From a virus (lineage: Duplodnaviria > Heunggongvirae > Uroviricota > Caudoviricetes), in the IMG/VR virus record IMGVR_UViG_3300045988_006100, positions 1-45,080 of that record: a stretch of DNA of 45,080 bases; one strand, written 5' to 3'. Below, one piece after another: positions 8,185 through 40,410 of the stretch (its first letter is position 1; every line of letters starts with the position of its first letter). A program made the translations under genes and the position numbers. A model generated the notes under the pieces. It did not search any database. It was not told where the DNA came from and worked only from the letters and a program-made list of their open reading frames with translations.

Positions 8185-8213
8185 TTGACAAGTGAATAGT
8201 TCGCTATTATAGT
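8185..8213 (+). promoter_or_regulatory. sigma70-like promoter (family member D)
   Basis: TTGACA-17 nt-TATAGT with internal GAATAG/CTATT inverted repeat; 29 nt upstream of gene 8242. Confidence 0.6.
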
Positions 8214-10875: not shown

Positions 10876-11075
10876 TTCAAGTAAATGAAATGCCGACTGA
10901 TAAAGATTTTTTGATGGTATGGCGCTGGGATGGGTATCTACACTCGGAATCGTTCACGTTCTTGAACGGTACCATGATGCGATACTACCCTGTAGAGGAT
11001 GAGTTCGAACCGGCCAATATGCTTAATTTCGAGAACATAATCCCTATTGCAAAATTTTATTTGACACATGAATAG
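10872..11075 (+). CDS. hypothetical protein
   Basis: ATG at 10872 with GAGGAGG SD inside upstream gene end (same 21-nt cassette as at 7677..7697). Confidence 0.45.
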   Translation: MIQVNEMPTDKDFLMVWRWDGYLHSESFTFLNGTMMRYYPVEDEFEPANMLNFENIIPIAKFYLTHE

Positions 11076-11088
11076 TTAGCTATTATAG
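11060..11088 (+). promoter_or_regulatory. sigma70-like promoter (family member E)
   Basis: TTGACA-17 nt-TATAGT, same core as D; 60 nt upstream of SSB-like gene. Confidence 0.55.
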
Positions 11089-11147
11089 TTCTAATCACTG
11101 GCCGGGCAGATCCCGGAGTAAACTGAAACTGAAAAGCGAGAAATCAA

Positions 11148-37944: not shown

Positions 37945-38404
37945 ATTCGGGCTTAGTGACCTTCGCAGCTTTACTGACAGCCTCTACACCATCAGCATCG
38001 GTAACTTTAACGAAGTATTCACCCACTGCGTTAACCGTCAAGGAAAGTGCCTCTTCCGGGGCGTTGACAACTTCCTTACCGTCTTTGTACCAGGTCAGTG
38101 CATACGGCGCTTCACCTGCTTTAACTTCGACAGTGATAGTCGCGCTGCCGTCGGCCAGTTCAGCGTCTTTTGGTTGCACAGAGAAATACACATCGCCTGC
38201 GTCCGCCAGATACGGAATCTCATAGAGCATACCGGCCGCAGGCAGCGCAATGCCGGTTTTATCCGCAAACGGCATGTCGTCTACCGGTGTACCCAGTACA
38301 CTTTCATCCTCAATAAACACCACGTTCTCACCAGAGCCAGACACCCGAGCGTACTGGACTACGCGACGTGACGGCACATCAGTTACTTTGAAAAAGCCCA
38401 TCAT
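37943..38404 (-). CDS. Ig-like domain protein
   Basis: C-terminal LTWYKDGKEV...GEYFVKVTDADG Ig-like pattern; ATGA overlap with MuF-like gene. Confidence 0.5.
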   Translation of the reverse strand: MMGFFKVTDVPSRRVVQYARVSGSGENVVFIEDESVLGTPVDDMPFADKTGIALPAAGMLYEIPYLADAGDVYFSVQPKDAELADGSATITVEVKAGEAPYALTWYKDGKEVVNAPEEALSLTVNAVGEYFVKVTDADGVEAVSKAAKVTKPE

Positions 38405-40374
38405 TAATCCCCTTTCAGATAATCAGCAACACGTTTATCGAGTTCCGCCATCTGCTTAAGCGTGAGCGGATTCCCGAAACCATCTACAGATATTACGCGA
38501 AACTCTTCCGGTGATATACCGCTGTTGCGGAAAATCTTACCGCGAACAGGGCCGAGGGCCTGGTCCTGAAACCACGCCGGTTGTTGTTTGAGGAACTCAT
38601 AATACGTGGTGTCTGCGTTTACCTGAGTCCCACCTTCTGCACCCTTAGCCGCTCGTTTCGCGCCTTTATCGAGGAAGTCGAACTCTGAACTGATTACCGG
38701 TGCCGTGCACGATCGACAGTTCGGATGGGCGGGGGGCATTGGACCTTTACCAATTTCCCACGTCATTCCGTCTCTGGCCCTGCAATTCTTGACTATCGCA
38801 CTACCTGCTGTATAATATCCTTGACTACTAGAGAGGGTATAAACATGGCACGTTCTAAACTCGACGCTTATGCGGATGATATTTGTTCTTTGTACCGAGA
38901 TGGCACTCCCGCCAGCATCATAGCCAAGAATTACGGCGTCACTACCACCACGGTAACAACATTTCTCAAGAAGCTCGGACTCATGCATGATCGACCCCGT
39001 GGTTGGGTTTCTAACGACACCATTTTGAATCAAAAAAGGGCTATAGAATTGTTCGAGTCCGGCGTCCCGCCTATTGAGTGCATAAGAAGGACCCAAGTAA
39101 GCAAAACAGTTTTCTATTCTATGGTCAAAACACTTGGCCTCGCTAAGCGCGGGCACACTCACAGGACATTCACCCCGGAGGAGAAAATCGCCAGAGCTAT
39201 CGTCCGACAGCAAAGCGGCGCTATGAATAAGACTGAAACCCTCGCTTTTGAATTGTTTAATTCCGCTGGCGTGGACGTAGTTCCGCAGTTTGCAATCGGC
39301 CCGTACAATGTCGATTTTGCCATTGAGTCCCACTCCATCGCCATAGAAATCTGTTGCCGCGGGACTCGTGCTTACCATTTTCCTGATGGGGAAATCAGCG
39401 AGCGTATTAAAAATATAATCCGCTCTGGCTGGCATGTTTATGTTCTTCACTGTTTCGAGCACAGTCACTTTGTCAACAGTGGTATACAAGACATGCTTAG
39501 TTGGATCGAGTTCATCAAGCGGAGTCCATCCGTATTGCGTGAGTACAGGGTGTTTCGGGGTGCCACTGAACTTCTCGCCGTTGGAAAGTTCGATGGTAAA
39601 GATTTTTCCTGAATAGAGTCCGCGCATTACCGCGTCCATCCCCGCGATGGGCGCTAATTCTGTTTCAGCCGTGAAACACGTTGTACTGGTACGGCTGTCC
39701 AGCGTCGACACCCATTCGTATTTCTCAATGATGTCGTCGTTCTGGCGGTACGTCTCGTTACGGGCTTCGTTGGATACGTGAGACAGTGCAGTACGGATTA
39801 CGGTGGCCGCGTTACGCTCAGAGATGTCCGCCAGTCCGCCAGCGCCTACGACGTTCTTAACAATCTGCCGTGTGGTTTGGCCTTGTACAAAGCCCATCTT
39901 AACGCCGGTTACCAGGCGCGCGACTTCTGTTTCACCCCAACCTGACATCAGCTTGGTGAAATCAACTGGCTTGTCACTTAATGATAAGGGCTGAAACTCG
40001 GCGGCGGCCCACACCTGCTCGGCGGTGGGTGTAACAAATTCCGCATTAACGTTGGTGGTGAGTGCCTTTACGTTCCACTCAGCCTCATACGCCGCCAGTT
40101 CCTTAAGGTCTTCTGTCAGCTTTGTTTGCCAGTCACCCGTAAGCCCCGTCAGAGCTTCTTCAAGGTCACGTAACAATTTATTCAGTCGCGCAGTGCTACG
40201 ACCGTCGTCACCGAATAACAGCACCTGCCGTTTAATTTCGTCACGCATTTCCTGAATGAATGGTGCGAGGTCTTTTACTTCACCGGATGCGGCGCGTTGC
40301 AGCCAAATCTGGTGGCTGATTAGTGATGTCAGTAAGCTCATAGATAAACCCTGTGGCGCTAAAGTTAATAGCAT
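38404..40374 (-). CDS. head morphogenesis protein (Mu F / SPP1 gp7-like) containing an intein
   Basis: 656 aa; after removing residues 233-530 the exteins read DSRTSTT-C-RARDG...PPAHPNCRSC, the MuF signature; located between portal and capsid genes. Confidence 0.7.
   Translation of the reverse strand: MLLTLAPQGLSMSLLTSLISHQIWLQRAASGEVKDLAPFIQEMRDEIKRQVLLFGDDGRSTARLNKLLRDLEEALTGLTGDWQTKLTEDLKELAAYEAEWNVKALTTNVNAEFVTPTAEQVWAAAEFQPLSLSDKPVDFTKLMSGWGETEVARLVTGVKMGFVQGQTTRQIVKNVVGAGGLADISERNAATVIRTALSHVSNEARNETYRQNDDIIEKYEWVSTLDSRTSTTCFTAETELAPIAGMDAVMRGLYSGKIFTIELSNGEKFSGTPKHPVLTQYGWTPLDELDPTKHVLYTTVDKVTVLETVKNINMPARADYIFNTLADFPIRKMVSTSPAATDFYGDGVGLNGKIDIVRADCKLRNYVHASGIKQFKSEGFSLIHSAALLSDDSSGDFLLRGECPVSVPALSEAKCFDHRIENCFAYLGPSYALNRRDAGLEQFYSPFLIQNGVVRNPTTGSIMHESELLEKCCYRGGSDAVILGYDAGGSAISVQRTNIIRISVEFRTCHVYTLSSSQGYYTAGSAIVKNCRARDGMTWEIGKGPMPPAHPNCRSCTAPVISSEFDFLDKGAKRAAKGAEGGTQVNADTTYYEFLKQQPAWFQDQALGPVRGKIFRNSGISPEEFRVISVDGFGNPLTLKQMAELDKRVADYLKGD
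38789..38816 (+). promoter_or_regulatory. near-consensus sigma70 promoter inside intein, antisense to it
   Basis: TTGACT-16 nt-TATAAT, 28 nt upstream of ATG 38845; GAGAGGG RBS at 38831..38837. Confidence 0.55.
38845..39612 (+). CDS. HTH plus Vsr/DUF559-like endonuclease (putative homing endonuclease), antisense within intein
   Basis: 255 aa from ATG 38845; two HTH-like segments (IIAKNYGVTTTTVTTFLKKLGL, IECIRRTQVSKTVFYSMVKTLGL); C-terminal PQFAIGPYNVDFAIE...IAIEI...GWHVYVL matches DUF559/Vsr core pattern. Confidence 0.55.
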   Translation: MARSKLDAYADDICSLYRDGTPASIIAKNYGVTTTTVTTFLKKLGLMHDRPRGWVSNDTILNQKRAIELFESGVPPIECIRRTQVSKTVFYSMVKTLGLAKRGHTHRTFTPEEKIARAIVRQQSGAMNKTETLAFELFNSAGVDVVPQFAIGPYNVDFAIESHSIAIEICCRGTRAYHFPDGEISERIKNIIRSGWHVYVLHCFEHSHFVNSGIQDMLSWIEFIKRSPSVLREYRVFRGATELLAVGKFDGKDFS

Positions 40375-40410
40375 ACTATAAGAAAGCCCCTTTCGGGGCT
40401 ATAGGTGAAC

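Follow-up and report, generated by a model that had tools for sequence, protein, structure and literature searches.

How might an intein with no recognizable endonuclease in its own reading frame be mobilized? The question is raised by the MuF-like head morphogenesis gene in a 45,080-nucleotide stretch of viral DNA (IMG/VR record IMGVR_UViG_3300045988_006100, positions 1 to 45,080; hereafter the window), in which an intein on the - strand contains, wholly within itself and on the + strand, an open reading frame (ORF) of 255 codons. An earlier reading of the letters alone (the original prediction) had proposed that this + ORF is an independently promoted gene for a Vsr/DUF559-like endonuclease. 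We conclude that the locus is in all likelihood a composite mobile element, made up of a class-1 intein in MuF and a homing endonuclease that is encoded as a separate 255-residue protein on the other strand, its codons in register with those of the intein.

That the + ORF is a gene at all has to be established against the frame that it shares. The + ORF and the MuF ORF are read from the same triplets (both are congruent to 1 mod 3), so that a stop in either frame is a TTA, CTA or TCA codon in the other. In the long ORFs of this phage, stops in the aligned antisense frame occur once per 38 codons, and there are 15 in the 358 extein codons. Within the intein there are two, one at sense codon 240, outside the + ORF, and one at codon 255, which is the + ORF's own stop. 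We calculated the chance that a 255-codon antisense frame is open by accident as approximately 1e-3.

Patterns of substitution distinguish the two frames. As a reference for substitution counts in the window we used a metagenomic relative, L008, which has an intein at the same site and an endonuclease 73% identical. Between the window and L008, differences at sense codon positions 1, 2 and 3 number 74, 50 and 138 in the N-extein and 24, 17 and 84 in the C-extein, which is the normal wobble, and 106, 42 and 64 in the overlap, which is the wobble of the + frame. The same flip was found when the ratio of position-3 to position-1 differences was computed over 48 moderately diverged pairs: it is 1.35 in the N-extein, 1.71 in the first 50 intein codons, 0.66 in the intein core, 2.62 in the last 20 intein codons and 1.36 in the C-extein. 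When the same DNA was translated both ways, the + frame outscored the - frame in 3526 of 3603 divergent pairs (mean 118 versus 74 bits), and the open frame, the start codon and a Shine-Dalgarno (SD) sequence are kept even in AT-rich phages. The centre of the intein is under selection in the + frame and its ends under selection in the - frame, and the 255-codon + ORF is a real gene. The flip also bears out the impression, given in the original prediction, that the centre of the intein resembles antisense translation. A longer + start, at 38725 (295 residues), was considered and rejected, as alignments with homologues begin at the ATG at 38845; this codon has an SD sequence and mirrors the His codon of intein block F.

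The product of this gene is predicted by AlphaFold, from a 123-sequence alignment, to consist of two three-helix bundles and an alpha/beta core (predicted local distance difference test score, pLDDT, 91.4; predicted template modelling score, pTM, 0.73), and by fold comparison the core has a Vsr-type alpha/beta nuclease fold. Two helix-turn-helix (HTH) segments followed by a Vsr/DUF559-like core had been proposed from the letters, and both the model and matches at the level of the family agree with this. Among 50 relatives compared with Pfam, 29 matched HTH_7, 28 matched MTES_1575 (best E 1.3e-9) and two matched DUF559, with further matches to several other HTH families. Residues Y154, N155, D157, E168, R187 and G195 are invariant in the alignment of these 50 sequences; D157 and E168, which fit the acidic residues required for catalysis on the core strands, are still invariant across 123, and Y234 and V236 are likewise invariant among relatives. 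When PDB sequences were searched with a profile built from the 123 aligned family members, HTH proteins were returned (the tandem-HTH protein 2lvs, E 1.7e-8, and resolvases), and neither Vsr nor I-Bth0305I (PDB 3R3P), a Vsr-like/EDxHD homing endonuclease of a group I intron in Bacillus phage 0305phi8-36, was reached. Because only HTH proteins were found in this search, assignment of the core as a Vsr-like nuclease rests on fold comparison together with weak Pfam matches. A profile search of protein databases found 169 relatives, mostly on 1-kb contigs with a truncated MuF gene, some of them bearing the JGI label 'very-short-patch-repair endonuclease'.

The surrounding insertion begins with CFTAETEL (Cys233; 39676..39678) and ends with AIVKN (38785..38787), followed by a +1 Cys, which places the proposed intein of approximately 298 codons exactly where it had been predicted. 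Its junctions read LDSRTSTT/CFTAETEL...SAIVKN/CRARDG (slashes mark junctions here and below); the intein-free MuF of phage Bas72 has LDSRTSTI-CRVRDG and aligns across the site. These 894 bp are missing from about 200 related Kagunavirus/Jersey-like phages, whose matches cover 59% and are split in two pieces. The intein interrupts a conserved MuF motif, and its removal was expected to restore the MuF signature; indeed, the protein scores 35.2 bits against Phage_Mu_F (profile positions 8-84) with the insertion and 50.0 bits (7-109 of 112) after splicing in silico. The intein is contiguous, as a single unbroken sense ORF of 656 codons runs through it. The expectation that homologues keep the - strand frame open through this segment was also borne out, with an uninterrupted sense ORF in all 80 IMG/VR loci for which architecture was assessed (the best 80 of 228).

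Residues C1, T40, H43 and N298 are invariant across 46 related inteins, and all six of the other family inteins that we aligned begin C-[FLV]-x-x-x-[TS]. The Pfam family Intein_splicing (PF14890) matches every one of the 46 related inserts scanned (each with E <= 1e-3, best 3.8e-13). No other Pfam family, and no endonuclease domain, was found in these 46 sense-frame inserts, which agrees with the earlier failure to see an endonuclease motif in the sense frame of the window; over the part that mirrors the HTH region, the sense-frame consensus is lost entirely. We infer that the intein splices, because the isolated carrier phages are viable: the intein-carrying isolates are propagating lytic phages. 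One NCBI protein (P0123; 238 residues, from a 1.5-kb contig) has the last 104 residues of the intein at 100% identity, followed by CRARDG, with unrelated sequence on both sides; we regard it as a chimeric ORF or an assembly artefact.

Does the element move? The window is a Kagunavirus-like E. coli siphophage of the Guernseyvirinae, and over 2.2 kb around the locus it is 93.6-95.6% identical to phages BEU35, fEg-Eco06, vB-Eco-KMB36 (KMB36) and Ec1-ASingh. The 894-bp intein differs from that of the window at no position in fEg-Eco06, at one in BEU35, at two in KMB36 and at three in Ec1-ASingh, and the adjoining extein DNA of the same four phages is 88-93% identical (P from 1e-20 to 3e-29 by Fisher's exact test). 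Moreover, the exteins of the window are nearer to those of intein-free BUCT789 (92.3%) than to those of intein-bearing KMB36 (about 89%), and the intein has a sporadic distribution among Kagunaviruses. A near-identical intein in diverged flanks, with exteins closer to an intein-free phage, suggests that the whole intein has spread horizontally in recent times, which is a signature of homing. We rejected the idea that the element is a prophage or a host element, as the intein DNA had no match in 5,426 complete E. coli genomes.

Putative signals for expression of the + gene are written into the splicing motifs of the intein. The promoter-like site, the SD-like sequence GAGAGGG and the 255-codon ORF are all present where the original prediction had placed them, the promoter-like site within block G and the 3' end of the ORF over block B. 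Sites that match the sigma-70 consensus at 11 of 12 positions number three in the whole window, against 0.49 expected, and about 5e-4 are expected in any given 100-nt stretch. The other two, both TTGACA-17-TATAGT, lie at 8185-8213 and 11061-11089 (+) and are probably genuine early promoters. In the promoter-like site inside the intein, the -10 element TATAAT mirrors the Tyr-Tyr codons of block G and the -35 element TTGACT mirrors the Val-Lys codons beside the terminal Asn; -10-like elements are present in the Aaphi23, Vibrio and Idiomarinaceae copies, and there is none in the GC-rich Gordonia copy.

Translation signals are shared in the same way. GAGAGGG reads on the other strand as the Thr-Leu-Ser codons of block F, and the family consensus upstream of the start, GGAGGTT, mirrors the Asn-Leu codons of HVYNL. 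The ATG of the + ORF (38845..38847) is the reverse complement of CAT, the codon for His510 in block F. Among 63 non-redundant loci, 49 have a start codon (ATG, GTG or TTG) in the endonuclease frame at a distance of exactly 60 nt within the C-terminal junction; this codon lies opposite the His codon of block F in 47 of the 63, and two more have TTG opposite Gln. Towards the other end of the gene, the bases of block B encode EYRVFRG on the + strand (in relatives, QYRVIRG mirrors TPNHPVLT), and the + ORF stops 66 nt short of Cys1. Beyond this stop, in the N-terminal coding region of the intein, is a hairpin that may end the antisense transcript; in L008 the stem is kept and the loop varies, and the T-tract is weak.

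The same arrangement recurs widely. A tblastn search of cultured phages with the + ORF found relatives about 25% identical in Gordonia phages Fosterous, Vivi2 and Affeca, Haemophilus phage Aaphi23, Idiomarinaceae phage 1N2-2, Vibrio phage PvVp04 and Salmonella Jerseyviruses. Every match falls under a MuF or head-morphogenesis gene or a hypothetical coding sequence, and in all five representatives that we inspected the match is antisense to the overlying gene and its ORF is intact. A scan of IMG/VR yielded at least 228 relatives or contigs. In all 80 of the loci assessed, the + ORF is nested antisense and codon-aligned within a longer ORF, and these longer ORFs have class-1 intein ends; the same nested, codon-aligned layout in a MuF-family intein is seen at seven additional loci, taken from records of phage genomes and from assembled metagenomes. 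Of ten representative exteins, nine matched Phage_Mu_F, Phage_min_cap2 or VG15 and one had no match. Of two family proteins on long contigs, L089 is nested in a MuF intein and L088 is cut by the contig end. No free-standing copy of the endonuclease was found among the loci examined, and the family ranges over phages of Actinobacteria, Enterobacteria, Pasteurellaceae, Vibrio and Idiomarinaceae.

Jerseyviruses, which belong to the same subfamily as the window, have a related element in the same gene, with an endonuclease about 26% identical, inserted 30 codons downstream at AHPN/C. As judged from sequence, two related elements target two conserved Cys codons of the MuF gene within one virus subfamily. 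Most relatives use AHPN/C; DSRTSTT/C is used only by the window and the four near-identical phages, L008 and L009. The last of these (IMG/VR contig 3300033153_004484, positions 561-1751) has a third element, at DSKTSTT/C, with a longer intein of 397 residues. The start of its endonuclease ORF is off the usual 60-nt offset, and its block F has Tyr in place of His, with ATA as the mirrored codon.

Existing records do not reveal this gene family. No complete antisense endonuclease gene is annotated in PQ141284 (L001), OR525703 (L090), MH976510 (L002), AJ560763 (L003), KJ847052 (L005), OM837731 (L006) or LC507823 (L007), the last of which calls only a 134-residue fragment (ORF43). The GenBank records of fEg-Eco06 and KMB36 label the MuF homologue 'minor head protein with inserted intein' and do not mention the antisense gene, and a report in Arch Virol (2024) mentions a 900-bp intein in vKMB36 and likewise not the antisense gene. 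Phage annotation systematically misses the antisense endonuclease family.

These observations suggest how the composite element would work. Early in infection, host RNA polymerase would transcribe the endonuclease gene from the sigma-70-like promoter in block G, and translation would begin with the ATG opposite the His codon of block F. When intein-bearing and intein-less phages infect the same cell, the enzyme would cleave the intein-less MuF allele in or close to the sequence coding for TSTT/CRARDG, and recombinational repair from the intein-bearing genome would copy the whole element. Late transcription of the - strand would then give a 72-kDa MuF precursor, in which the N- and C-terminal HINT halves would fold around a passenger of approximately 190 residues that is the mirror translation of the endonuclease gene, and splicing would release a functional MuF of 39.6 kDa. 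Antisense transcription early in infection might, in addition, set the timing of MuF expression or reduce it.

Several observations weigh against a mobile intein with an antisense homing endonuclease, and they are best considered along with the explanations that they would favour. In the window protein, the GGxWH..H loop of many relatives is absent and CCRGTRAYH stands in its place; two of its three domains are HTH; its own Pfam matches lie below the gathering scores, both for HTH_7 (residues 9-37; 22.2 bits against 23.8) and for the MTES_1575 REase family (residues 137-200; 20.1 bits against 38.2); and differences between phages restart 18 nt and 28 nt from the junctions, leaving no long co-conversion tract. 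The promoter-like site, too, is identical in L008, where it is inseparable from conservation of block G. Given the missing loop, the two HTH domains, the weak MTES_1575 match and the lack of a long tract, the + ORF could be under selection but not be a homing endonuclease, or no longer be one: it might be a DNA-binding regulator, a nuclease directed at host DNA or at rival phages, or an enzyme with a decayed catalytic loop, and the identical inteins would have spread by ordinary recombination. We consider this unlikely, as the invariant D157, E168 and R187 are kept in the window protein, and several other subfamilies that lack the loop have intact ORFs. Furthermore, in five phages identity falls sharply, from 100% to about 90%, precisely where the intein begins and ends, as homing predicts, and the ORF is nested in an intein in every locus examined and is never free-standing.

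Other doubts concern the intein itself. The penultimate residue in the window is Lys rather than the usual His, the window copy scores 21.8 bits (E 1.8e-4) against the Intein_splicing gathering score of 35.8, and AlphaFold gives no confident HINT fold for the sense-frame intein: from an alignment of three sequences only, mean pLDDT is 31 and the model is uninformative, with strands at the ends (34-51) and coil over residues 61-215 (about 21). Such a pattern would suit a passenger peptide, but so shallow an alignment makes for an unequal comparison with the model of the + product. On this evidence the insertion might be an inactive intein, with the precursor unspliced and MuF tolerating 298 additional residues or being processed in some other way. 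We give this little credence. The window has every expected splicing element (Cys1, TxxH, blocks F and G, terminal Asn, +1 Cys), and these are conserved across the 46 relatives; a penultimate Ser, Arg or Lys is common in the family; the insertion breaks a conserved MuF motif; and its carriers are propagating lytic isolates. Finally, the + ORF could be the non-coding shadow of a sense frame whose centre is a novel in-frame domain. Long spurious ORFs arise most often in codon-aligned antisense frames, and some + strand motifs are plain mirrors of intein blocks (QYRVIRG and TPNHPVLT; the ATG and the His codon). But substitutions in the centre follow the + frame, which scores higher in 98% of pairs; the sense centre has neither a consensus nor a Pfam match in 46 sequences; the + product is modelled at pLDDT 91 with a Vsr fold; and the open frame, start codon and SD sequence persist in AT-rich phages. 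This explanation is effectively refuted by our analysis.

If the locus is a mobile intein with an antisense homing endonuclease, when did the two parts come together? The fixed 60-nt offset, and the lack of free-standing copies among the loci examined, suggest a single old union of intein and endonuclease. A broader proposal is that all such loci form one ancient and widespread class of 'two-stranded' elements, in which intein and endonuclease, dual-coded and inseparable, have evolved together with translation signals hard-wired into splicing motifs, rather than arising by recent accidental invasions. We put this forward tentatively, as plausible but somewhat short of probable.

Coordinates of the features discussed are collected in the table. 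The MuF ORF matches phrog_241 (head morphogenesis; E 2e-147), has an alternative start (MSLL) at 40341, and is flanked by a portal gene and a Hoc-like decoration gene. Between the portal and MuF genes, at 40385-40400 (-), is a GC-rich hairpin, AGCCCCGAAAGGGGCT, with a T-rich run after it, which resembles an intrinsic terminator or an attenuator within the late operon.

Table. Positions of the MuF gene, its intein and the antisense gene in the window, with the related element of a Salmonella phage (last line).
Feature	Position	Strand	Description	Evidence
MuF-like head morphogenesis gene	38404..40374	-	656-residue precursor, 72.1 kDa	ORF list, phrog_241, Pfam Phage_Mu_F
N-extein	39679..40374	-	residues 1-232, ends ...LDSRTSTT	alignment to intein-free Bas72 MuF; substitutions vs L008
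C-extein	38404..38784	-	residues 531-656 plus stop, begins CRARDGMTWEIGKGPMPPAHPNCRSC	intein boundary; substitutions vs L008
Class-1 intein	38785..39678	-	298 residues, 32.6 kDa, Cys1...Asn298	absent from relatives; motifs; Pfam Intein_splicing
Block A	39655..39678	-	CFTAETEL, catalytic Cys1	alignment with six other family inteins
Block B	39538..39564	-	GTPKHPVLT, TxxH motif	T40 and H43 invariant in 46 inteins
Block F	38827..38850	-	CHVYTLSS	contains His510 codon CAT
Block G	38785..38820	-	GYYTAGSAIVKN, with terminal Asn	both promoter hexamers opposite
Antisense gene	38845..39612	+	putative homing endonuclease, HTH-HTH-Vsr-like; 255 residues, 28.8 kDa, isoelectric point 9.1	
First HTH domain	38857..38973	+	residues 5-43, three-helix	
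Second HTH domain	39013..39132	+	residues 57-96	AlphaFold helices 57-71, 76-83, 87-96; 2lvs profile match
Vsr-like PD-(D/E)xK nuclease core	39229..39522	+	residues 129-226	
Sigma-70-type promoter-like site	38789..38816	+	TTGACT-16 nt-TATAAT	11/12 consensus positions
SD-like sequence	38831..38837	+	GAGAGGG	7 nt before ATG
Terminator-like hairpin (tentative)	39632..39654	+	20 nt past stop of the + ORF	folding free energy -21 kcal/mol, z -2.67
Element of Salmonella phage vB_StyS-sam	L007 2396-3211		AHPN/C...HN/CRS	compared with window 38785-39678

The locus brings a rare and recently described intein architecture into an E. coli phage, where it can serve as a tractable model. Intein-bearing fEg-Eco06 and vKMB36 are in culture, as are intein-free relatives such as the BASEL phages Bas70-76, so that homing, splicing and antisense expression are open to genetics. 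As the two genes share codons, the endonuclease could be inactivated by substitutions that leave the intein protein unaltered, which would show cleanly whether mobility depends on a separately encoded enzyme. The family-wide dual coding of splicing blocks with a start codon, an SD sequence and a promoter is a compact natural case of antisense overlap under two-sided selection, and it bears on how endonucleases first became associated with inteins. Current annotation calls the MuF gene only, and the endonuclease gene has been overlooked in hundreds of phage genomes.

How does the element compare with known systems? In canonical bifunctional inteins such as PI-SceI, an insertion at a conserved site is mobilized by a site-specific endonuclease that is an in-frame domain of the same polypeptide. 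The window shares with these the insertion at a conserved site and the associated endonuclease, but the centre of its sense frame holds no domain and the enzyme is the product of a separate antisense gene. The fold of the window protein matches that of I-Bth0305I, with only 13% identity, and the EDxHD motif of the I-Bth0305I type could not be mapped onto its sequence; moreover, that enzyme is encoded in an intron on the sense strand, whereas the window enzyme is encoded antisense in an intein.

The original prediction knew of no described intein whose endonuclease is a separately transcribed antisense gene, and on this point of novelty it was mistaken. Gosselin, Arsenault and Gogarten (bioRxiv 10.1101/2025.01.02.630785) describe inteins with an 'anti-sense VSR-like HEN' (homing endonuclease) in MuF-like minor-capsid proteins of actinobacteriophages, and in their Supplementary Table 1 four Gordonia phages (Vivi2, Fosterous, Affeca, Angelicage) are entered as 'minor capsid, MuF-like ... 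VSR -1 ORF'. The + ORF of the window directly matched the antisense ORFs of Fosterous gp12, Vivi2 gp14 and Affeca gp15, from three of these phages. The architecture is already known, and the window copy belongs to this recently described kind: like the actinophage inteins, it has a MuF-like extein, a contiguous class-1 intein and a homologous Vsr-like ORF in the antisense -1 frame. It differs in its host, E. coli as against actinobacteria, and in its site, DSRTSTT/C, which lies about 30 codons upstream of the H-x-x-N/CRC used by the actinophage copies and most others; compared with those inteins, its ORF begins inside block F and ends beyond block B. The preprint proposes an origin by rare invasions of inteins by free-standing endonuclease genes, and does not discuss promoters.

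Two older systems, as that preprint relates them, share part of this design. Antisense LAGLIDADG endonuclease ORFs occur in the inteins of Synechocystis DnaX and a Chloroflexus SpoVR-like protein (Gorbalenya 1998 and Gogarten 2002, per 10.1101/2025.01.02.630785); by this account they too have the endonuclease on the strand opposite a contiguous intein, but with a LAGLIDADG fold where the window has a Vsr-like PD-(D/E)xK core with HTH domains, and in other exteins and hosts. In 'fractured genes' (Dassa et al. 2009, per 10.1101/2025.01.02.630785), a free-standing Vsr-like endonuclease gene lies between the halves of a split intein. From what is related of them, these resemble the window in having a Vsr-related endonuclease gene with its own expression signals tied to the intein of a phage gene; there, however, host gene and intein are split and splicing is in trans, whereas in the window the sense frame is open and the intein contiguous.

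Beyond the 2025 preprint, our analysis extends this architecture to phages of Gram-negative hosts and to hundreds of metagenomic contigs, and finds codon-aligned antisense nesting in every locus examined. It finds that start codon, SD sequence and promoter-like site are dual-coded with blocks F and G, and the C-terminus of the endonuclease with block B, and it adds a second insertion site and a very clean homing signature in coliphages.

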